Part shown: in pieces, positions 49,794 to 64,000 of the stretch
How positions within the stretch are numbered: the first letter of the stretch is position 1
Layout of the letters: each line of letters starts with the position of its first letter
Assembly: GCA_023489275.1 (NCBI GenBank)
Contig: JAMDDD010000004.1
Coordinates: forward strand, 27,802 to 91,801
DNA: 64,000 nucleotides
Direction of reading: 5' to 3'
Source: Actinomycetota bacterium
GTDB taxonomy: Bacteria; Actinomycetota; Thermoleophilia; BMS3ABIN01
Notes under the pieces: model-generated
The model's database searches: none
Told to the model about the DNA's origin: nothing
The model's input: the letters and a program-made list of their open reading frames with translations, nothing else
Program-made: the position numbers and the translations under genes

Positions 49794-50182
49794 GTTTTCC
49801 TTTGGTTCACATTGCTGGCGAACCCGATGCCCTAGGTTACCGGCCCGAAGCCGGTTTTGCAAATTCCGCGGGACATGGTCCCCAAACCGGGGCCAGGCAG
49901 CGACAGGGCGGCCCGGAAGCCGCCCTTAGATTTTCTTTGCCGGCGCCGCGTTTCCTTGTGCCGCCGGCCTCATGGCAATCGCCTGCGGAGGCAGGCCCCG
50001 AATTTTACTGACCCAGCACTTCGTTAAAATAGCCGTTCCAGAGGACGCGCTGCGAAGCGAGGACGGGACCGCCGGTGGAGGTGACGTTTACCGGCCCGCC
50101 CATCTTCCCCGGGAAGTCCGGATTCCAATTGCCGCCATGAGGGATGCTGTAGTTCCGGGTTACCGGAGTGCCGTCGAAGTTT

Positions 50183-52942
50183 TTAAAGCTTACAGTCACG
50201 CTGACTGTTGTCGTTGCAGAAGGATTGGAGACCATCACCCAACCAGGTCCAGAGGTAGTCGCTGGAGAGCTCCGAGGCGGGGGTGCCGGGAACCTCGTTA
50301 AAAGCTGAGCCGCCGTTTGAAAGCACCCGCTGGGAAGCGATGATATTGGCCGGTGCGGTCTTGCTGCTGGTAGTCCATGCCTGGACTTCTACGGGACCGC
50401 CGATCATTCCCGGGTAAGAAGGCATGATATCCTGACCGGCCGGCACCGGGTAAAAGCCTTTGACAGCTCCGGCAATTTTGACCTGACAGTAGACCTCAAA
50501 CGGATTCGGATTTGACACCATCACCCAGTCGAGCCGGCCATTGGTCTGATCGTACCAGGTCCAGTAGTAATGATCGGACAGATTGTCAATGTCCTGGCCC
50601 GGCACCTCTTCCAGGGAGTTTCCCGCCCAGAGCGTGCGCTGGCTGGTGATCGCCTTGTCGGAGGTCAGCGAGGCCGCGTTTACCGGTCCGCCGATGACCC
50701 CCAGATACTGGGCGTACAGCGTGCTGCCGGGAGCCACGGCGCCGTTGCCGCTTAAATTCCACTGGCGCCCCCCGATAAACAGGTTGAACTGATCAGTCTG
50801 CGCCGAACCAGACGGGTTCGCCAGCAGCACCCAGTCAGAAGTGTCCGGCGACTGGTTGTCATACCAGGTGAAATAATATGGCCGGTTTGCCTTCAGCACC
50901 GCCCCCTGGTCCCCGCCGGCAAGCGCCTGGCGGTCTCCTAATGCGGACACGCAGTACATATCGTTGAACGTTCCCAGATTTTCCGCCGACCAGGTGGCGC
51001 CGCCGTCCTGCGTGTGGATTACCCGGCCCGAGGCCCCCACGGCAAAGCCGTTGGTAGTGCTGGAGAATGAAACCGCGGCCAGCAGCCTGACCGTGCCCGA
51101 GTTCTCAGGCTGCCAGGTGGAGCCGCCATCGGTGGTTTTGAGGACCACACCCAAGTCCCCAACGGCGTACCCCGTATTGGCGTCGATCATGTCGATTGAG
51201 GAGAGGAAATCCGTCGATGGCTCGTACGTCGGCGTCCAGGTCCCACCGCTGTATTTGTAGATGACGCCTTGGCTTGACAGACCAGGGTCACATGGGTCCG
51301 CCGTGGTGCAGGCAGCCTGCCCCGCGATCCAGCCGTTGCTGGCCGCGTCGGTGGCGTCCACCCAGTTAAGCTGTGCAAGTTCATTCAGGGAAGTATCCAT
51401 CGACCAGGTCGACCCGTCGCTGGTCCGGAGAATGATGCTATTTTTGCCGACGGCCCAGCCGCTGGTGGCGCTGGTCATGTGAACGGAAAGAAGCCCGCTG
51501 CCGGCAACGCCCGACATAGGCGACCAGACGCCGCCGCTATATTTATAAGCCACGGAAAGAGGAGGCTGGTTGCCGCCGGCGCAGGCGGCGTCGTCACAGG
51601 AGCCGACGGCAAAGCCGGTATTTGCGTCCAGAAAACTGACCGAGCGCAGCGTGATGTCGGTCGGGATCGTGCCGGAGCCGGTGCTGTTGTCGGGAGTCCA
51701 GTTGACCCCGCCGTCAGTGGTTGTGACCACGGTGCCGCTGCTTCCCACCATCCAGCCGGCGCTGGCATTGATGAAGCTGGACCCGTAGACCGAAGCCAGC
51801 CCGGCGCTTCCCGCCACGAGCGTCCACGTGGAGCCGCCATCGGTGGTCTTCGTCACGGCGCCGCCGCTGCCGGCGGCGAAGCCGGTGCTGCCGGCGCCCG
51901 GAAACGTAACCGTCGCCAGCGAAGCCGCCGTCCCGGATGAGACGGAACCGGCAGCCAGCGCCGTGGCGACGGTATCGGCGCTGTCGGACCATGGGACGTC
52001 AGCAGCAGTCATGATGGCGCCGCCGCTGCCGACGGCCACGACTGTGTGCGGCGCGCCCCCGGCGCCGCCGATTACGGTCACGGCGCTGATTGGACCCAGC
52101 GGCGAGGCGTCGCTGCTGTAGGTCCAGGTGACGCCGCCATCGGTTGTCTCCAGCAGCCGGCCCTTCGTGCCATTTGAATAGGTGCCGGCCGCAAAACCAT
52201 GATTTGAGTCAACAAAAAAGACGGAGCGGATGTCCGTGCCCGTGATCTGAGAGGCGGTGCAGCTGCTACAGCTGGTCCAGCTGCGTCCGCCGTCAGCCGT
52301 ATTGTAAATCATGCCGTTATTGTTGCCGCCGGCAACGGCAAAGCCGGTATTGGCGTCAACCATCTGCACGCTGTTGGCGGTGCCATCGAGGCCGGTGCCG
52401 GCGTTCCAGGTGGCGCCGCCGTTGGTCGTGTAAAACGCCGTATATCCGCTTGCCTGCCCCACGGCCGCGCCGTCGCTGGAGTTAGCAAATGAAATGCCGC
52501 TCATGCCGGCAGGCTGGGAAGCGGGATAGGGCTGGCTGACCCAGGTGTAGCCGCCGTCAGACGTGTGCAGGATAACGCCGGGAAGCGACGCGTTTAGAGT
52601 ATCTTCGCCGGCCGCCCAGCCATTGCTGGCGTCCGTGAAGTCGATGCTAAACAGGTTATATGACGTGCCCGAGTTCTCAGCCTGCCAGGTGGAGCCGCCA
52701 TCGGTGGTTTTGAGGATGGTGCCGCCAATGCCGGCGGCCCAACCGGTGCTGGCGTTGATAAAAGAGACGGAATTGATCGTGCTGCCCTGGACGTTGGGCT
52801 TTACCCACTCCCAGGGACCGGCCCCGGTGTTGAGCATCTGCCGCGCCGGAGAGGCGCCCGCGGTCGATACAATGACAAACAGGCTCCCCATCAGCAGCGC
52901 CAGTGAGCATAACAGCCGGATTGACAAGATTCTCCCGATCAT
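50183..52942 (-). CDS. secreted multi-domain repeat protein: N-terminal BNR/Ycf48-like beta-propeller repeats plus C-terminal ~95-aa YxxTWYD repeat modules
   Basis: signal peptide; ~9 repeats of (I/V)LKTTDGG(S/T)TW; 3 C-terminal modules (YYFTWYDNQSPDTSDWVLLANP, YYWTWYDQTNGRLDWVMVSNP, YLWTWLGDG) with GGPV and SQR motifs; AGGAG RBS 5 nt before the ATG at 52942. Confidence 0.75.
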   Translation of the reverse strand: MIGRILSIRLLCSLALLMGSLFVIVSTAGASPARQMLNTGAGPWEWVKPNVQGSTINSVSFINASTGWAAGIGGTILKTTDGGSTWQAENSGTSYNLFSIDFTDASNGWAAGEDTLNASLPGVILHTSDGGYTWVSQPYPASQPAGMSGISFANSSDGAAVGQASGYTAFYTTNGGATWNAGTGLDGTANSVQMVDANTGFAVAGGNNNGMIYNTADGGRSWTSCSSCTASQITGTDIRSVFFVDSNHGFAAGTYSNGTKGRLLETTDGGVTWTYSSDASPLGPISAVTVIGGAGGAPHTVVAVGSGGAIMTAADVPWSDSADTVATALAAGSVSSGTAASLATVTFPGAGSTGFAAGSGGAVTKTTDGGSTWTLVAGSAGLASVYGSSFINASAGWMVGSSGTVVTTTDGGVNWTPDNSTGSGTIPTDITLRSVSFLDANTGFAVGSCDDAACAGGNQPPLSVAYKYSGGVWSPMSGVAGSGLLSVHMTSATSGWAVGKNSIILRTSDGSTWSMDTSLNELAQLNWVDATDAASNGWIAGQAACTTADPCDPGLSSQGVIYKYSGGTWTPTYEPSTDFLSSIDMIDANTGYAVGDLGVVLKTTDGGSTWQPENSGTVRLLAAVSFSSTTNGFAVGASGRVIHTQDGGATWSAENLGTFNDMYCVSALGDRQALAGGDQGAVLKANRPYYFTWYDNQSPDTSDWVLLANPSGSAQTDQFNLFIGGRQWNLSGNGAVAPGSTLYAQYLGVIGGPVNAASLTSDKAITSQRTLWAGNSLEEVPGQDIDNLSDHYYWTWYDQTNGRLDWVMVSNPNPFEVYCQVKIAGAVKGFYPVPAGQDIMPSYPGMIGGPVEVQAWTTSSKTAPANIIASQRVLSNGGSAFNEVPGTPASELSSDYLWTWLGDGLQSFCNDNSQRDCKL

Positions 52943-53173
52943 TTTTTCTCCTAGTGGATTTTGATTGGACGGCACACTTTCACGGCAAGCGCTGTGCCTT
53001 CCTGGTTTCAGGCGGCAGTAACTTCATCGGAAAATTATTGATTTTAGCAAACCCATGCCGTACCGCGTGATTTGGGTGGGGAGCCGGAATGGGAATATAA
53101 CTTAACTCGAAGTCATTCCGCAGTCAAGTTAAGAATATGTTACGTTTTCCCGACGCCTTGCTTCCCCAAATCG

Positions 53174-54976
53174 TCAGGCGGCAGGATAGTAGTATTCGTT
53201 GCCCTCATTGTCATAGCAATGCGCGCGTACATCAGTCAAGAACGACTGCACGCCATTGGGAATTTGATATTTCACCGTGAAGCTGGCGTAACCGCCGCTG
53301 CCGACCAGATCACCCAGACTCTCAGGCAGGCTCGTGATAACGGCGACGCCGCTGTCGGTTTTGACGCTGTCCAGCGTCGCCTTGATCCCGGCTTCCTGCC
53401 CCTCATTGCTGATCCTGAAGTCTACCGAAAGGTCCCGGTTGGCATAATCGGATGCGGAGGCCCAATAGGTGTTGATTTTTAAAAGCTCAAGATCGGGCGT
53501 CGCCGGACCCAATTCCCCCGTGGATGCCCGCGGCAGACCAACCAGCTCATTGAAGCTGTTCTTGTAAATCGTGCGCTGGCTGGAAAGCAAGGGCTTGCCA
53601 CCGTTGTTTATCACCCGCACCGGTCCGCCCTGCATGCCGGCAAGGCTTGAATTGGAGCTGCTGCCTTCGCCAATCGTAAGCGAGTCACTCGGCTGCGGCG
53701 CCTGCCCCAGATAAACGTCCGCGGACGCGCTGCCCACGCCCTGGTTGCCGATCATGACCCAGTCGCCGCTGAAACCGTCTTCCTGCCTGTTGTCATACCA
53801 GCCGTAGTCCATCTCCGTGTCCAGACCCGCGGGCGGCGTCCCCGGCACTTCCTTGAATGAGTTCTTGTACAGGGTGCGCTGGCTCACCAGAATATTCTCG
53901 CCGGCGGCGCAATTGGTGCAGACAACCCTGACCGGCCCACCGATCTGACCGGGGAAGAAGGGCGTGACGCTCTGTTCCGGCCCGATGGGGTACGTCTGTT
54001 TCGGATTGGGGTCGCTGCCGATATAAAGCTGCGCGTTTACGGGTGAAGTGCCCGGGTTTGACATCATCACCCAGTCACCGCTGAAATCCCCGGTCATATC
54101 ATACCAGCTGAAAAAATATGCTTTGTCAAGACGCCCCTGCGGGTAGCCCATCACTTCGCTGAAGCTGTTCTTGTACAGTACTCTTTGAGAAACCATTAGC
54201 TTCTTGCCATTGGTGCTGATCACATGAACGGGCCCCCCGATCAGCCCGGGAAACTGCGGTTCGATCTGCTGGCCGGGATCGATATGGTAAGTGGTGTTCC
54301 CAACCTGCTTGGAACCGACAAAAAACTGGACATCCGCAGTCTGGCTGTCCTCATTGGCGACAATTAACCAGTTGCCGTTCATCCCGTCTTGCGGCAGGGA
54401 ATCATACCAGGTGAAGTAATATGAAGAATCGAGATTGCTGTAAAGCAAGGCGGCTATCTCGTTGAAAGAATTCTTGTAGATGACCCTCTGGGTGACGGCG
54501 AGCGCCTGCCCGCCGGTGGAAATTACCCGGACGGGTCCGCCGATCTCATTAGCCCAGGAAACAACCCATTTGCCATGGGGGGGGATATCAAACGTGTTGC
54601 GCGGAGATTGCCCGGCGCCCAGAAAGACTTCAACGTGAGCCGTGGCGTTATCCAGATTTCCCAAGGTGATCCAGTCGCCGTTCATGCCGTCCTGGGGCAG
54701 GGAATCATACCACGCGAAGTAGTAAGTCTTTGGCTGTGAGGCTGTCATCGGCTGGGTCGTTGCCGCCGATCCGGCCCCCGCCGGAATAGCAAAAATCATA
54801 ATGGCAGCCAGAATCAGCGCCGCCGCTGCTTTTGTTGCTGTCCCTTTTCCCAAGATGTATCGCCTATGCCTATGCCCTGCCGAACGCCCATCGGGCCCAA
54901 GTGCGACCAATGCCATCCCGTTGGATTTCTTGGCTTGCCCCCGGAGAACTTCTATCAGACAGCTAACGAACGCCAA
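53174..54976 (-). CDS. secreted repeat protein with 4-5 tandem ~95-100-aa YxxTWYD..GDW..GGPV..SQR..YKNSF modules
   Basis: modules YYFAWYDSLPQDGMNGDW, YYFTWYDSLPQDGMNGNW, YFFSWYDMTGDFSGDW, DYGWYDNRQEDGFSGDW each followed by GGPVRV and SQR(V/T)(I/L)YKNSF(N/S/K)E; probable TTG start at 54853 giving a signal peptide (MGKGTATKAAAALILAAIMIFAIPAGAGSA). Confidence 0.7.
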   Translation of the reverse strand: MAFVSCLIEVLRGQAKKSNGMALVALGPDGRSAGHRHRRYILGKGTATKAAAALILAAIMIFAIPAGAGSAATTQPMTASQPKTYYFAWYDSLPQDGMNGDWITLGNLDNATAHVEVFLGAGQSPRNTFDIPPHGKWVVSWANEIGGPVRVISTGGQALAVTQRVIYKNSFNEIAALLYSNLDSSYYFTWYDSLPQDGMNGNWLIVANEDSQTADVQFFVGSKQVGNTTYHIDPGQQIEPQFPGLIGGPVHVISTNGKKLMVSQRVLYKNSFSEVMGYPQGRLDKAYFFSWYDMTGDFSGDWVMMSNPGTSPVNAQLYIGSDPNPKQTYPIGPEQSVTPFFPGQIGGPVRVVCTNCAAGENILVSQRTLYKNSFKEVPGTPPAGLDTEMDYGWYDNRQEDGFSGDWVMIGNQGVGSASADVYLGQAPQPSDSLTIGEGSSSNSSLAGMQGGPVRVINNGGKPLLSSQRTIYKNSFNELVGLPRASTGELGPATPDLELLKINTYWASASDYANRDLSVDFRISNEGQEAGIKATLDSVKTDSGVAVITSLPESLGDLVGSGGYASFTVKYQIPNGVQSFLTDVRAHCYDNEGNEYYYPAA

Positions 54977-55180
54977 AAAGAGCGGAATGCAACGCGCTCA
55001 AGAGCCGGTGATTTTTGCAACACCAGAACCCAACCCCCCCTGATAGACCAAAGACCCGGAGCGGGCTGCTATGAGCCTCCGGCCGCCAGAGCTTTTCAAG
55101 TATACATTTTTTGAAAAATATTACAAGACCACGAATGTATATAAGATCAAAAAACGGTCAACGGAGGCGAGGCGGGCGGA

Positions 55181-58631: not shown

Positions 58632-58661
58632 TTGACAGGCGTACGTTCGTCCGCCTATAAT
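58632..58661 (+). promoter_or_regulatory. sigma70-like promoter upstream of lexA (TTGACA-N18-TATAAT)
   Basis: TTGACA at 58632-58637 and TATAAT at 58656-58661, seen directly; spacer contains GTACGTTCG. Confidence 0.4.
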
Positions 58662-58740
58662 GTTTTTCCCTACAAGGAAGGGGCAGCCGCCGGCGCCGGA
58701 GCGGCGCGAACAGGCCGGCGCCGCGCAAGCCACTCTCACC

Positions 58741-59316
58741 ATGAACAGCAGGACGCCAAAACATTTTGACAGGATAGTCGCCTTCTACCGGGCCAACCGG
58801 CGCATGCCCAGCCACGCCGAGATCGCCGAGATCGCGGGCTTAAGCTCCAAGGGGACCACCTACAAGCTGGTCAACCGGCTGGTGTCCCTGGGCCTGGTGG
58901 AGCGCGACGGAAAGGGGAAACTGCTGCCGGGGAGCCGGTTCTTGAGCCTGCCGCGGCTGGGCACGGTCGAGGCCGGCTGGCCCTCGCCCGCCGAAGAGGA
59001 GCTGCTGGACACGATGAGCCTGGAAGAGTTCCTCATCGAGCGGCCGGATAACACCTTCATCCTCAAGGTGCAGGGCGACTCGATGCTCGATGCCGGCATC
59101 ATGCCGGGCGACATGGTGCTGGTGGAACGGGGCGTACGCGAGAAGGATGGCGACATCATCATCGCCGAGGTCGACCGCGAGTGGACCATGAAGTACTACC
59201 GCAAGAAGAACGGCAAGGTCTGGCTGGAAGCAGCCAACAGCAAGTACGGACCGATATATCCGCAGGAAGAGCTGCGCGTCGCTGCCGTGGTCAAGGCGGT
59301 CATCCGGAAGTACTGA
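58741..59316 (+). CDS. lexA: LexA repressor
   Basis: N-terminal winged HTH (SHAEIAEIAGLSSKGTTYKLVNRL), cleavage site LGTVEAG, S24 Ser/Lys (QGDSM ... EWTMKYYRKK); ATG at 58741 (the ORF-track extension is unconserved). Confidence 0.88.
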   Translation: MNSRTPKHFDRIVAFYRANRRMPSHAEIAEIAGLSSKGTTYKLVNRLVSLGLVERDGKGKLLPGSRFLSLPRLGTVEAGWPSPAEEELLDTMSLEEFLIERPDNTFILKVQGDSMLDAGIMPGDMVLVERGVREKDGDIIIAEVDREWTMKYYRKKNGKVWLEAANSKYGPIYPQEELRVAAVVKAVIRKY

Positions 59317-59426: not shown

Positions 59427-60752
59427 TTGGCCGGCGGCAGACACGGCAATCTCACCATCTCCACATTTCCCCGGGCGGTGATCCATATCGACGCCGACGC
59501 CTTCTTTGCCGCCTGCGAGCAGGCGCGCGACCCGCGGCTGAGAGGACGGCCGGTGATTACCGGCAAGGAACGCAACATCGTCGCCTCGATGAGCTATGAG
59601 GCCAAGGCCCGCGGGGTCGTGCGGGCCATGCGCCTCTCAGAGGTGAAAAAGCTCTGCCCGGACGCGGTCTTCCTGCCGTCCGACTACGAGACATATAGCC
59701 TCTTGTCAAAAAGGTTCTTCGCCATTGTCAGGCGCTACACGCCGGATGTCGAGGAGTACGGCATCGACGAGTGTTTTGCCGACATCACCGGCATGCGCCG
59801 GCCACTCAAGATGGGCTACCCGCGCATCGCCGCGGCAATGAAAGAAGAGCTGGACCGCTCCTTCGGCCTTACCTTTTCCTGCGGCCTGGCGCCGAACAAG
59901 ACGATCGCCAAGATCGCTTCGAAGTGGAAGAAACCGTCGGGACTGACAGTCATCCCCGGCCGCGACATCCAGGGCTTCATCGCCGATATGCCGGTGGAGA
60001 AGGTATGGGGCATCGGCCCGCAGACGACCGCGTACCTCAACAAGCTGGGCATCCGCACGGCGCTTCAATTCGCCCGCAAGGATGAGGACTGGGTGAAGGC
60101 GCGCTTCAGCAAGCCGTTCTACGAGACGTGGCAGGAGCTCAACGGCCGCATGGTCTGCGAGCTGGAGCTGGCGGAAAAGAACACCTACGCCTCGATTCAA
60201 AAAGTGAAGACCTTCACGCCGCCGTCGAGCGATCCGGAGTTCGTCTTCGCGCAGCTCTCCAAAAACGTGGAGAACGCCACCATGAAAGCGCGGCGCTACA
60301 AGTTGGCGGCCGAGCGCGCCATCCTGTTTTTAAAGACGCAGGATTTCCGCGGCGCCGGCGTCGAGGTCAGGTTCTCGCGCGCCACGCCCTTCCCCCACGA
60401 GATCATCGCGGCGATGGAGACGGCCTTCAAACAGCTGTTTAACCCCAAAGAGCTCTACCGTTCCACCGGCGTGGTGCTGTTCAGGCTCACTGAGGACCGC
60501 ATCGTCCAGCCCGACCTGTTCGGCGTCACCGCCCGCTACGAGCGGCTGAGCAAGGTTTACGAGGCGGTGGACGGCGTCCGGGTCAAGTACGGCAAGCATA
60601 CGCTGTTCCTCGGCTCCAGCTATTACGCCCACAAGTTCGGCCAGCACCTGGGCGAGCGCGGCGACGCCCCCCGGCGCAAGGAGGAGCTGTTCAAGGGCGA
60701 GACGAAACGGCAGCGGCTGGGAATACCAATGTTCATGGGTGAGGTAAAATAG
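59427..60752 (+). CDS. Y-family DNA polymerase (DinB/UmuC-like)
   Basis: HIDADAFFAACEQARDP, SIDE-like DECFADITG, and palm/finger/little-finger architecture; immediately downstream of lexA. Confidence 0.85.
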   Translation: MAGGRHGNLTISTFPRAVIHIDADAFFAACEQARDPRLRGRPVITGKERNIVASMSYEAKARGVVRAMRLSEVKKLCPDAVFLPSDYETYSLLSKRFFAIVRRYTPDVEEYGIDECFADITGMRRPLKMGYPRIAAAMKEELDRSFGLTFSCGLAPNKTIAKIASKWKKPSGLTVIPGRDIQGFIADMPVEKVWGIGPQTTAYLNKLGIRTALQFARKDEDWVKARFSKPFYETWQELNGRMVCELELAEKNTYASIQKVKTFTPPSSDPEFVFAQLSKNVENATMKARRYKLAAERAILFLKTQDFRGAGVEVRFSRATPFPHEIIAAMETAFKQLFNPKELYRSTGVVLFRLTEDRIVQPDLFGVTARYERLSKVYEAVDGVRVKYGKHTLFLGSSYYAHKFGQHLGERGDAPRRKEELFKGETKRQRLGIPMFMGEVK

Positions 60753-60795: not shown

Positions 60796-63700
60796 TCAAG
60801 CCCGGCTCAGCTCGACCAGGCTCAGCCCTTTGTTGCTCCAGGCGGCGGCGTCTTTCGAGTTCAGCTCAAGCGCCCGGTCAAAACATTTAATGGCGTCGCG
60901 GAAGCGTCCCAAAGCATGCAAGCTGATCCCTTTGCTGTTCCAGACCTGGTCATTAGCATCATCAATATCAAGTGATTTATCAAAACTTTGCACCGCTTCC
61001 TTGAACATTTCCATGCCGTGCAGGCTCAAACCCCTGCTGTACCAGGCGCGCGGGTCGCGTGCTTCGATTTGCAGCGATTTATCAAAGCACTCCACGGCCT
61101 TTGACTGGCTGCCCAGAACCCGCAAGCTTTCGCCCTTGCTAAACAGCGCCACGGCACTGCCCGGATCCAATTTAAGCGTTTTATCAAAACAGCTTATTGC
61201 TTCCCGGTAGCGGCCCAGCTTGTGCAGGCAATCCCCTTGAGCCAGCCAGGCATCCGCTTCCATCGGTTCGATGGCCAGGGCTTTTCCGTAAGAGTCCGCC
61301 GCCGGCTGAAATCTTTCCAGCCCCCTCAGGCTCTCGCCCTTGCCGAACCAGGCGGCGGCGTTCTCCGGGTCCAGCTTCAGCGCCCGGTCATAGGCGCGCA
61401 GCGCAGCCTCCAGCCGTCTTAGCCCCCTCAGGCTCTCGGCTTTGCCCAGCCAGGCGGCCGATTCCGGATTCAGCTTCAGCGCCCGGTCATAGGCGCGCAG
61501 CGCCACATCCAGACGGCCAGCTTCCCGGAGGCTCTCGCCCTTGCCCAGCCAGGCGGCGGCGTGGCCGGGATCAAGCCGCAGCGCTTTGTCAAAGGCGCGA
61601 ACCGCTTCCGGCTGGCCCAGCTTCAGCAGGCTCTCGCCTTTGCCGAACCAGGCGGCGGCGTTATCAGGGGCAAGCGAAGCCGCCCGGTTGTAACTCTGGA
61701 CGGCAGCCTCAAAGTGCTCGAGCAAACGCTGGCTTTCGGCCTTTCCCAGCCAGGCGGCGGCATCTTTTTCGTTGATCGTGAGCGCCCTGTCATAACAGGC
61801 AATCGCTTCATCGAGCCTTTCCAGACTCCTGAGGCTATCCCCCCGGGAACGCCAGGCCGGAGCCAGACCGCGGTCAAGTTCCAGGGCTCTGCCAAAGAAA
61901 TCAATTGACTCGCCGGGCTTTCCCATCGCGCGGAGGCTCTCACCCTTGCCATAATATGCTTCCGCCCGTCTTGGCGCGATATCCAGAACTTTTTCATAGG
62001 CAGCAACGGCATCGTCAAACCGTCCCAGGTGCAGCAGGCTGTCTGCCTTGCCAAACCACGCTTCTTCATTTTCCGGATCGATCTGAAGCGCCGAATCGAA
62101 ACTTGCCGCCGACTTTTCAAAAACGCCCTGCCGCAGCAGGCTGTTTCCCAGGCCCAGCCTGACTCCGGAGGTCTCCAGCCCCAGTTTAAGAGCCTTTTCA
62201 TAAGCGTTAAGAGCCTTCCGGTCTTCGCCCAGTTGCAAGAGATTTTCTCCCTTGCCGAACCAGGCGGCGGCGTTTTCGGGGTCCAGCTTCAGCGCCCGGT
62301 CATAGGCGCGGCTGGATGCATCCCAGCGCTTTAACTGCCGCAGGCTCTCGGCTTTGCCGAACCAGGCGGCGGACTGGCCCGGATCCAGTCTCAGCGCCCG
62401 CTCGTAAGAACGCACTGACTGCTCCGGGCGGCCGGTTCCCCGCTCACTCTCAGCCTTCCCGAACCAGGCACGCGCCCGGCCGGAATCCAGTTTGAGCGAC
62501 TCGCCATACGCGGCCAGCGCCTCTTCGAAACGGCGGAGGGCAAGCAGGCATTCGCCTTTGCCGAACCAGGCGGCGGACTGCCTGGGGCCCAGCTTCAGCG
62601 ACTCGCTGTAAACCGGCAGCGCCTCTTCGAAACGGCGGAGGGCAAGCAGGCATTCGCCTTTGCCGAACCAGGCGGCGGACTGCCTGGGGTCCAGCTTCAG
62701 CGACTCGCTGTAAACCGGCAGCGCCTCTTCAAAACGGTCAAGCCCACGCAGGCATTCCGCCTCGCCGCGCCGGGCAGCAGCGTTTTTTGGCTCAACTTTT
62801 ATGAGGCTGGCGTAAGCCCCGGCGGCGGCTGTCAGTTGCCCTAGTGAATGAAGGGCCTCTGCCTTCCCCTGGAGCGCCGCGGTGTTTTTGGCGTCAAGCT
62901 CAAGCACCCGGTCGTAGCTGTCTACCGCCTTTTGAAAAACGGAGCTGGACCTTAAACTGTCGCCCCGGCCCTGCCATGCCTGAGCATTGCCCGGCTCCAG
63001 CTCGATCGCTTTATCATACGCAGCCGCCGCTTTCTTGAAATCTCCCAGCTGGCGAAGGCTTTCGGCGCGGCCGAAGTGGGCGGCGGCTTTGCCGGCTTCC
63101 AGCCGGAGCCCCTTGTCATAACCGGCAACCGCTTTTTTAAAATCTCCCAGCTGGCGGAGGCTTTCGGCGCGGCCGAAGTGGGCGGCGGCTCTCCCCGGCT
63201 CCAGCCGGATCGTCCGGTCATAACTTGCCAGAGATTTTTTCAAGCTGCCGCAAAACCGCAGGCTCTCGGCGAGGCCGAAATGAGCGGCAGCATTACCGGG
63301 GTCGAGTTTGATCGCCTTCTCGTAGCTTCCCGTTGCCGTTTTGTAACCGCCTGTCAGACGGAGACATTCACCGTTGCCAAAATGAGCCGCCGCATTTTGC
63401 GGATCCAGGGCCAGCGCGCGTGAATACGCCATACCCGCTTTCTTCCATTCGCCGCCGGCCCGCAGGCACTCGGCTCTGCCAAACCAGGCGGAGGCGACGC
63501 CGTCATCAAGCTTGAGCGCCTTTTCATACGCGCGCGCCGCGTCGTCCAGCCGCCCGAGGTCACGGAGGCTATCCGCCTTCCCCAGCAATGCCTCCGGGTT
63601 CCGAGCATCCTGCTTCAGGACGCGGTCAAACGATTCGGCGGCATCGGCGTGCCTGCCCAGAGAGCGCAGGTTCTGCCCCCGTTTCAGCCAGAAAACTGAC

Positions 63701-64000
63701 TCTTTGGGCGCCGCCTGCGTGGCTCTGTCAAGACTGGCGGCGGCTTCCTCGTAACGCCCCAGGCCATGCAGGCTGTCACCGCGGCTGAACCAGCAAGATG
63801 CGTCCGATCCGTCCAGCTCGATCGCCTTGTCAAAGCTGGCAACCGCGTTTTCCAGGCGCCCCCATAAACGCAGGCTCTCACCGCGGCTGAACCAGCAAGA
63901 TGCGTCCGATCCGTCCAGTTCGATCGCCTTGTCAAAGCTGGCCACGGCTTTACCGTACTGCTTGAGGTCATGCAGGTTTGTTCCTTTGGCAAACCAGGCT
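60796..64000 (-). CDS. giant tetratricopeptide-repeat (TPR) protein, N-terminus beyond the window
   Basis: >1050 aa of back-to-back 34-aa TPR units (AWFGKGESL..G.....A...Y..AL.LDP); the reading frame stays open to position 64000; contains near-identical 102-bp DNA tandem repeats. Confidence 0.85.
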   Translation of the reverse strand, partial: AWFAKGTNLHDLKQYGKAVASFDKAIELDGSDASCWFSRGESLRLWGRLENAVASFDKAIELDGSDASCWFSRGDSLHGLGRYEEAAASLDRATQAAPKESVFWLKRGQNLRSLGRHADAAESFDRVLKQDARNPEALLGKADSLRDLGRLDDAARAYEKALKLDDGVASAWFGRAECLRAGGEWKKAGMAYSRALALDPQNAAAHFGNGECLRLTGGYKTATGSYEKAIKLDPGNAAAHFGLAESLRFCGSLKKSLASYDRTIRLEPGRAAAHFGRAESLRQLGDFKKAVAGYDKGLRLEAGKAAAHFGRAESLRQLGDFKKAAAAYDKAIELEPGNAQAWQGRGDSLRSSSVFQKAVDSYDRVLELDAKNTAALQGKAEALHSLGQLTAAAGAYASLIKVEPKNAAARRGEAECLRGLDRFEEALPVYSESLKLDPRQSAAWFGKGECLLALRRFEEALPVYSESLKLGPRQSAAWFGKGECLLALRRFEEALAAYGESLKLDSGRARAWFGKAESERGTGRPEQSVRSYERALRLDPGQSAAWFGKAESLRQLKRWDASSRAYDRALKLDPENAAAWFGKGENLLQLGEDRKALNAYEKALKLGLETSGVRLGLGNSLLRQGVFEKSAASFDSALQIDPENEEAWFGKADSLLHLGRFDDAVAAYEKVLDIAPRRAEAYYGKGESLRAMGKPGESIDFFGRALELDRGLAPAWRSRGDSLRSLERLDEAIACYDRALTINEKDAAAWLGKAESQRLLEHFEAAVQSYNRAASLAPDNAAAWFGKGESLLKLGQPEAVRAFDKALRLDPGHAAAWLGKGESLREAGRLDVALRAYDRALKLNPESAAWLGKAESLRGLRRLEAALRAYDRALKLDPENAAAWFGKGESLRGLERFQPAADSYGKALAIEPMEADAWLAQGDCLHKLGRYREAISCFDKTLKLDPGSAVALFSKGESLRVLGSQSKAVECFDKSLQIEARDPRAWYSRGLSLHGMEMFKEAVQSFDKSLDIDDANDQVWNSKGISLHALGRFRDAIKCFDRALELNSKDAAAWSNKGLSLVELSRA

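Follow-up and report, generated by a model that had tools for sequence, protein, structure and literature searches.

What do two large, apparently exported proteins, built around a common repeated module, do at a housekeeping locus between glyA and the genes for dCMP deaminase and ATP synthase? The question is raised by a 64,000-nucleotide stretch of DNA from an Actinomycetota bacterium (assembly GCA_023489275.1, contig JAMDDD010000004.1, positions 27,802 to 91,801 of the forward strand; hereafter the window), to which a first-pass annotation made from the letters alone had drawn attention. The two open reading frames (ORFs) that it described are real and both lie on the minus strand, gene A at 50183..52975 (930 aa) and gene B at 53174..54976 (600 aa). 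We argue below that A and B are exported and that their block of modules, which we call the cassette, most likely acts as a pseudo-tetramer that would bind wall glycan and thereby anchor its passenger on the cell surface; this proposal draws on sequences, predicted models and analogy, and we consider it moderately probable.

A cassette of four modules

In B the modules are four in number and contiguous. They span aa 84-184 (54425..54727, on the minus strand like all features of A and B given below), aa 185-285 (54122..54424; the copy that was modelled singly, hereafter B2), aa 286-386 (53819..54121) and aa 387-487 (53516..53818), with 33-50% identity between modules. A hidden Markov model (HMM) of the module finds them at E = 7e-40, 9e-44, 2e-41 and 7e-36, respectively; it was built from the window's own copies, and these values show only how alike the copies are. 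A carries two complete modules, at aa 699-801 (50573..50881; E = 6e-35) and aa 802-905 (50261..50572; E = 7e-35), followed by a broken third that is discussed with that gene. The repeat noticed in the first pass therefore stands, whereas its count does not: B has exactly four modules rather than four to five, and the third copy in A is a broken chimera. Likewise, A and B can be called paralogous with respect to the module block common to both, and not along their full length.

The repeat is by no means peculiar to this locus. A 40-sequence profile of the module, searched against 1.84 billion cluster representatives, matched 1,373 of them at E ≤ 1e-3 and 706 at E ≤ 1e-30. Exactly four contiguous modules were counted in 116 of 120 close homologues; among a further 139 cluster representatives, four modules are present in 125 and eight in 8 (4+4 with a linker), and in the remainder the module block extends to a protein end in all but one. 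Moreover, when a module was paired with its best distant counterpart in another protein, the two occupied the same block position in 278 of 332 cases. Counts of four or eight and modules that keep to their positions therefore suggest that the block is an old four-part unit that moves between proteins whole, and not a freely expanding repeat.

Most members of the family come from uncultured Actinomycetota. Outside the metagenome-assembled genomes (MAGs) of that phylum the cassette is found in MAGs of Anaerolineae and in the cultured Ornatilinea apprima P3M-1, where it terminates two thermolysin-like M4 proteases; no plasmid copies were found in PLSDB. Cassette genes are sometimes clustered, three being adjacent in an Actinomycetes MAG (L015:2-9404) and the two M4 protease genes of O. 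apprima lying next to each other (L039:1904-9167), and such clustering suggests local duplication of whole cassette-bearing genes.

Two variants of the block deserve mention. The eight-module proteins (P0121-P0124, P0127, P0143, P0150 and P0155) have two tetrads, sometimes 95-515 residues apart, and P0124 combines its two tetrads with an M23 peptidase and a PEP-CTERM tail. A sub-family (P0142, P0157, P0161, P0164, P0168 and others) ends in a conserved extra 21 residues, EYWFPWYDxxSMxTxxLVGxP, which amount to strands 1 and 2 of a fifth module that lacks its Asn; such a tail hints at strand capping or strand exchange between neighbouring modules.

The fold of the module and the ASRAH superfamily

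In scans of Pfam and NCBIfam no model reaches threshold on the module. B scores 21.5-22.9 bits against PLipase_C_C (PF05506), over 40 residues and below the cut-off of 24.4, and the other short sub-threshold Pfam matches of the module family are to DUF7407 and to the end of the GH71 model. CARDB and PKD, which had been suggested earlier as the described domains to look for, and other named Ig-like repeats gave no match in Pfam or NCBIfam at E ≤ 1, and no Pfam match to SLH, CWB2, LGFP, LysM or choline-binding repeats was found in A or B. Sequence searches of the PDB with the B profile, the module profile and the C-terminal domain of B returned nothing significant, the best match being 8smq at E = 0.02.

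The predicted structure is more informative. Modelled singly with AlphaFold2, B2 is a beta-sandwich of ~100 residues with a predicted local distance difference test score (pLDDT) of 96.2. The top Foldseek match of this model in the PDB is TM1070 of Thermotoga (1nc7; TM-score 0.60-0.64, probability 1.0, E = 2e-3), followed by the sensory rhodopsin transducer of Anabaena (ASRT; 2ii7 and 2ii8; TM-score ~0.5, probability 0.98-1.0). It was from TM1070 and ASRT that the ASRAH superfamily was defined (De Souza, Iyer and Aravind 2009, Biol Direct 4:25; PMC2739507), its diagnostics being a strand 1 Trp that usually follows a polar residue, and an almost invariant Asn that ends strand 2 and is followed by a tight turn. 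According to the same authors, solo ASRAH proteins are tetramers whose putative sugar cleft is partly walled by the dimer interface, the ligand cleft of TM1070 lying at that interface; secreted members occur either as dyads in actinobacterial lipoproteins or as tetrads on an N-acetylmuramoyl-L-alanine amidase in Chloroflexi, and these dyads and tetrads were proposed to form hetero-tetramer-like units that bind sugars or peptidoglycan (PMC2739507).

The modules of A and B agree with this description in most respects. The predicted fold of B2 fits the eight-stranded beta-sandwich of ASRAH as an overall match, not strand by strand. In 40 diverse modules W6 shows at least 90% conservation, with T, S, G, P or A as the residue before it (motif F-T-W-Y-D), and N24, at the end of strand 2, is invariant in 40 of 40; a minority of modules, including module 1 of A, carry an insertion of 1-2 residues right after N24 and so depart from the "no gaps" detail of 2009. 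Like solo TM1070 and ASRT, the module has a Trp in strand 1, an Asn at the end of strand 2 and, in its last strand but one, an Arg, and the tetrameric state of these proteins matches a module count of four, as seen in B, in the orthologues of A and, as two modules plus a broken remnant, in A itself. The solo proteins differ in being cytoplasmic homotetramers of ~120 aa, and their ligand motif SHEshChhN, with its His and Cys, is replaced by G-[DN]-W-h-h-h-h-N in the modules. When the module profile was aligned with hhalign to a profile of ASRT and TM1070, N24 fell on N38 of ASRT, the register to be expected, at a probability of 14% (P = 2e-3) and then 27% (P = 7e-4); the target profile contained 2 and then 121 sequences, the 120 ASRT homologues being too alike to deepen it.

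A further connection runs through DUF5719 (PF18986), the only curated model that some members of the cassette family pass. P0162 scores 48.2 bits against it (E = 1e-12; cut-off 26.2 bits), P0152 stays just under the cut-off with 25.7 bits, and a module of P0167 aligns to profile positions 176-247, while the sole other Pfam match of ASRT is to positions 175-224 of the same model (E = 0.07). DUF5719 thus appears to provide a transitive sequence bridge between the module family and ASRT. A and B show no match to it at E ≤ 1, and the module block of B none at E ≤ 10; the model, which has 319 positions, is of a different architecture and does not consist of four equal modules. DUF5719 is an actinobacterial family and is probably the ASRAH dyad lipoprotein described in 2009; a search of the literature on DUF5719 and on ASRAH follow-ups found nothing past the paper of that year.

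Because fold, motifs, tetrad architecture and the DUF5719 bridge agree, we accept the module as a predicted member of the ASRAH (ASRT/TM1070-like) superfamily and not as a new fold. The first-pass annotation, which could not place the module in a known family, was thus right as far as Pfam and NCBIfam models go and wrong in that the module can be assigned to ASRAH, secreted tetrads of which had been reported in 2009. Those amidase tetrads of Chloroflexi (Roseiflexus, Chloroflexus and Herpetosiphon) are likewise secreted and have four tandem ASRT-like beta-sandwich modules, a likeness drawn from their published description. The present family also includes Chloroflexota members and Amidase_2 fusions, which make up 2 of the 103 relatives sampled for the partner census below (P0122 and P0190). 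The published tetrads, however, were described as always amidase-fused and mainly from photosynthetic Chloroflexi, whereas neither A nor B has an amidase. The domain type and the tetrad arrangement were therefore already known from 2009, computationally. What is new is that the cassette is general-purpose and not tied to amidases, that its main home is an uncultured actinobacterial lineage, and that there are double tetrads, a sub-family with an extra 21-residue tail and a conserved B-A pair at a housekeeping locus.

The AlphaFold2 model of full-length B has a pLDDT of 85.8 and a predicted TM-score (pTM) of 0.81, with residues 79-600 mostly above 90; a pTM of this size over five domains indicates that the domains keep a fixed mutual arrangement. 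Given that the solo homologues self-associate into tetramers, the cassette could conceivably serve as a protein-protein assembly module that attaches to others of its kind, or to a dedicated partner, forming an S-layer-like lattice or scaffold of which B would be the structural subunit. B has indeed little beyond its cassette, and its locus, a housekeeping one, is the same in all genomes examined; cohesin and dockerin take the same position in some propeller homologues (see below). However, four modules per chain would already satisfy a tetramer, so that no interface would obviously stay free; the invariant residues, being polar and aromatic, look like those of a sugar site, and no solved S-layer protein gives a sequence match better than that of 4uic at E = 0.3. 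We therefore regard assembly as a quite unlikely function of the cassette.

Partners, export and anchors

In two sets comprising 103 cassette proteins in all, Pfam recognized 43 and 48 partner families; about 90 kinds of secreted domain are joined to the cassette. Among them are proteases of families S8 (subtilases), M4 (thermolysins), M10 (matrixin), M14, M23, S53 (sedolisin pro-domains) and C14 (caspase-like), peptidoglycan hydrolases (Amidase_2, CHAP, SpoIID and glucosaminidase), as well as GH16, GH26, CAP domains, beta-helices, PD40 and BNR propellers and many Ig-like spacers. Export signals, here as in A and B, were judged by hydropathy or by a crude test of the N-terminus. By this crude test, ~74% of the cassette proteins whose called sequence begins with Met have a signal-like N-terminus, and those without one look mostly like mis-called starts or fragments. 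What the partners appear to have in common is their destination, not what they act on.

The presence of glycosidases (GH16, GH26, GHL15) among the partners of the cassette, together with the sugar binding predicted for the ASRAH fold, raises the possibility that the cassette is a carbohydrate-binding module which targets environmental polysaccharide of plant or microbial origin and so brings enzymes to their food. Most partners do not degrade polysaccharides, however, and there are among them proteases of many families, CAP domains, propellers and hydrolases of the cell's own peptidoglycan; B has no enzyme domain whatsoever, and, as described next, the same propeller bears true cell-surface anchors in other phyla. 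We thus think substrate targeting unlikely.

When the propeller of A was used alone as query, its homologues in other phyla were found to end in familiar devices at the position that the cassette occupies in A. P0403 and P0408 carry three CWB2 repeats there, P0431, from a MAG labelled Thermoleophilia, four LGFP repeats, P0411 and P0420 cohesin plus dockerin, and P0437, of Bacteroidota type, a sorting tail of the type IX secretion system (T9SS). Known devices for surface attachment or sorting thus substitute for the cassette on homologous propellers of other phyla. Taken together, the range of partners and the substitution by known anchors argue for surface anchoring rather than for catalysis or substrate targeting, and the surface, polysaccharide-binding role at which the first pass had hinted thus becomes the best-supported candidate function.

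The T9SS tail of P0437 also brings to mind a helper of secretion or folding that would be cut off once export is complete, in the manner of PPC pre-peptidase domains or of T9SS tails themselves, all the more as the cassette usually forms the very C-terminal end of secreted enzymes, many proteases among them. With its ~400 residues and four-fold internal structure the cassette nonetheless far exceeds known sorting tails in size; B and several other proteins have it at the N-terminus, and it can double to eight modules or precede further domains or a PEP-CTERM tail. Such a helper role strikes us as very improbable.

A model for the cassette

Our model of wall anchoring starts from what is directly supported, namely the modules, their counts of four or eight and their conservation by position, the match in fold, the export signals, the range of partners and the substitution by known anchors. 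A and B would be Sec-exported proteins of the cell envelope, each with a four-module cassette (A formerly), in which four ASRAH-type subunits would have been fused in one chain and would have diverged into position-specific modules. We infer a geometry in which the four modules pack as a single pseudo-tetramer, as the solo homologues form homotetramers with clefts at their interfaces. The clefts would be lined by residues conserved across modules, that is, W6, Y7 and D8 of strand 1, W19 and N24 of strand 2, GP64-65, R81 and E90. The ligand would be a sugar unit from the wall of the cell itself, of peptidoglycan or else of a glycopolymer linked to the wall, and its binding would hold the passenger on the surface non-covalently; as such passengers A has its double propeller, B its Ig-like domain and the paralogues have proteases, peptidoglycan hydrolases or glycosidases.

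The model has precedents in function. In Gram-positive bacteria of other lineages, SLH domains (3 copies), CWB2 (3 copies), LGFP and choline-binding repeats follow the same logic, in that a small and fixed number of tandem copies sits at one end of many unrelated secreted enzymes, and these enzymes likewise form a multi-member paralogous set in each genome. Their folds and sequences are unrelated to those of the cassette, and the likeness, as we see it, would be one of function only.

Several observations weigh against wall anchoring by a pseudo-tetramer. The similarity of the module and ASRT profiles is weak (hhalign 14-27%, P ~1e-3), and hmmscan found no match of the module block to the ASRT family PF07100 at E ≤ 10. 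Foldseek with the model of whole B retrieved generic beta-sandwich arrays such as alpha-2-macroglobulin and complement C3, at TM-scores of 0.1-0.18, and the four-fold packing would follow only from the pTM of that model and from the tetrameric state of the solved homologues. The GH16 and GH26 fusions would fit substrate targeting as well. No phage endolysins with the cassette, which would have lent the model independent support, were found in GenBank phages or, with two pattern sets, in IMG/VR, where the scans used few back-translated peptide patterns and could have missed divergent copies. Finally, A has lost its full tetrad, so that under the anchor model it would be non-functional as an anchored protein.

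A bolder version of the anchor model, which we offer tentatively and to which we give somewhat less than an even chance, holds that a whole lineage of anaerobic Actinomycetota, uncultured and of class level, and likewise the Anaerolineae have in the cassette their main non-covalent system of surface display. The cassette would then be a single-chain, pseudo-tetrameric lectin for wall glycopolymers, and B a dedicated core protein of the envelope. Should this be true, it would constitute a new class of cell-wall anchor, equivalent in function to SLH or CWB2, with the ASRT fold and more than a thousand cargo proteins. Even as a wall anchor of less general use, the cassette would fill the place of a missing surface-display module in two monoderm groups of which little is known, the uncultured Actinomycetota MAGs and the Anaerolineae, and would allow more than a thousand unannotated protein clusters to be labelled as cell-surface. 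In evolutionary terms it may be an unusually clear case of a homotetramer turned into a fused, position-specialised pseudo-tetramer. The cultured carrier O. apprima makes binding by the cassette directly testable, and a model built from the present alignments would improve the annotation of these genomes, Pfam and NCBIfam having none for the family.

Gene B and its passenger

The ORF of B (53174..54976), whose orthologues in 12 genomes are 43-92% identical, encodes a signal peptide, the four ASRAH-like modules and an Ig-like C-terminal domain. It opens at a TTG (54976), and its first ATG (M21) follows 20 codons downstream at 54916, which is likely the true start. From there, the signal-peptide region extends over about aa 21-71 (54764..54916), with a basic HRHRRYILGK preceding the hydrophobic core AAAALILAAIMIFAIPAGAG; hydropathy peaks at 2.6 over aa 50-65, and aa 1-78 are disordered in the AlphaFold2 model. 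Near-identical proteins have been called publicly with three different starts, giving 541, 576 and 539 aa, and the signal peptide of B-type proteins is therefore often missing in databases.

The C-terminal passenger (113 aa, aa 488-600; 53177..53515) is predicted to be an Ig-like beta-sandwich of seven strands with pLDDT > 90. It is conserved among B orthologues, has neither a Pfam match nor a PDB sequence match, and bears out the earlier remark that B ends in a distinct domain.

Module 3 of B harbours a Cys-x-x-Cys pair (VVCTNC; C353 and C356; 53900-53920), which is invariant in all B orthologues and is not found in the other three modules. The pair could be a disulfide, or could bind a metal, in a way peculiar to this place in the block.

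Gene A and its broken end

The open frame of A (50183..52975) leads from a signal peptide through a double propeller and two modules to 6 residues of a third. Its true start is likely the ATG at 52942 (M12), from which a hydrophobic, signal-like N-terminus, MIGRILSIRLLCSLALLMGSLFVIVSTAGA, is read; the claim that both proteins bear signal peptides thus holds for A as it does for B, in both cases on the strength of hydrophobic, signal-like N-termini. The propeller occupies about aa 45-695 (~650 aa; 50891..52843) and, in keeping with the roughly nine blades counted in the first pass, shows nine canonical Asp-box motifs. It passes Pfam PF14870 (PSII_BNR) with 147.9 bits (5e-43; 7 stretches) and reaches 166.3 bits against the NCBIfam equivalog model for Ycf48, below the cut-off of 326. 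Since this cut-off is missed, the N-terminal part of A is best read as a Ycf48-like double propeller and not as Ycf48. Like the photosystem II assembly factor Ycf48/HCF136, A has a BNR/Asp-box beta-propeller; it differs in having two propellers' worth of sequence, in being secreted and in belonging to a lineage without sign of photosynthesis, so that the likeness is one of fold only.

The last module of A is broken (50005..50260). The head of module 3, DYLWTW (50243-50260), is followed by one stray base (50242), and a module-4-like body continues in another frame (50008-50241; HMM E = 6e-28) up to a TAA stop at 50005-50007. A is thus not confined to 50183-54976, the range originally given for the two genes, as the body of its last module continues to 50005, outside it. 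The out-of-frame tail is 53% identical to module 4 and 33% identical to module 3 of the A orthologue in the related MAG L003; this orthologue and that of L002, with 1196 and 1191 aa, end in four intact modules. The module-4-like tail and the four-module orthologues therefore suggest that A has lost roughly one module length, between the module 3 head and the module 4 head, by a deletion with a frameshift. An NCBI entry named YCF48-related protein (P0393, 919 aa) is identical to the truncated product of A, and the public assembly therefore has the same lesion. The lesion at 50242/50243 could reflect either a real pseudogene or a collapse of the assembly between repeats.

Orthologues of A (L001:4965-6848, L002:11936-15511 and L003:4874-8464) contain two tandem units of ~30 aa, GGAVTGVTITNPGSGYTSAPxVTF, whose position in the propeller region varies by genome and which are not present in A of the window. 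From this pattern the unit looks like a mobile mini-domain.

The locus and its neighbours

Pfam confirms the flanking genes that had been named before (glyA, dCMP deaminase, a wecA-like gene and atp): Sua5, a low-molecular-weight phosphatase, RpiB and serine hydroxymethyltransferase (GlyA) lie upstream of the pair, and dCMP deaminase, Glycos_transf_4 (a wecA-like family-4 glycosyltransferase, GT4) and ATP synthase subunit a downstream. The order Sua5-(low-molecular-weight phosphatase)-rpiB-glyA-B-A-dCMP deaminase-GT4-atp is kept in all 12 related loci with a B orthologue, as far as each contig extends, and the identity of B among these loci goes from 92% down to 43%. The locus being kept in 12 of 12 related genomes, the pair is therefore not a recent insertion, contrary to the first-pass view that it had been inserted into a glyA-atp block, which by the terms of that annotation itself would be refuted if the genes were found here throughout the lineage; the B-A pair is an old, fixed feature of the lineage at a housekeeping locus. 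The G+C content of A and B (0.55-0.66) lies inside the range of the flanks, and a recent horizontal insertion of A and B was rejected because their composition is unremarkable and the locus conserved. A functional reading of the neighbouring wecA-like GT4 was likewise rejected, since Sua5, wecA and atp follow one another in actinobacteria generally, for example in Rv1301-Rv1304 of M. tuberculosis, and none of the related loci examined departed from this order. The first pass had compared the region with Bacillus-type genomes; the host is not of that type, and its close relatives are uncultured Actinomycetota MAGs without exception, labelled Thermoleophilia, Gaiellales, Actinomycetes or Actinobacteria bacterium.

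An Rfam scan of 44-64 kb found no RNA element, and a PADLOC scan of A and B gave no tie to defence systems. Two promoter-like sites lie upstream of B (55099-55161), with weak matches to the consensus, and the terminator scan returned a hairpin at 49905-49926 that has no T-tail on the coding strand and also matches the consensus weakly.

Further along the window, a gene for a LexA-like S24 peptidase (58660..59316, plus strand) stands directly upstream of one for a Y-family (ImpB/DinB) polymerase (59427..60752); the pair is divergent from the Sua5 operon and is also present in L002. Beyond it, at 60796-63945 on the minus strand, a protein of 1049 aa is encoded that consists nearly entirely of tetratricopeptide (TPR) repeats.

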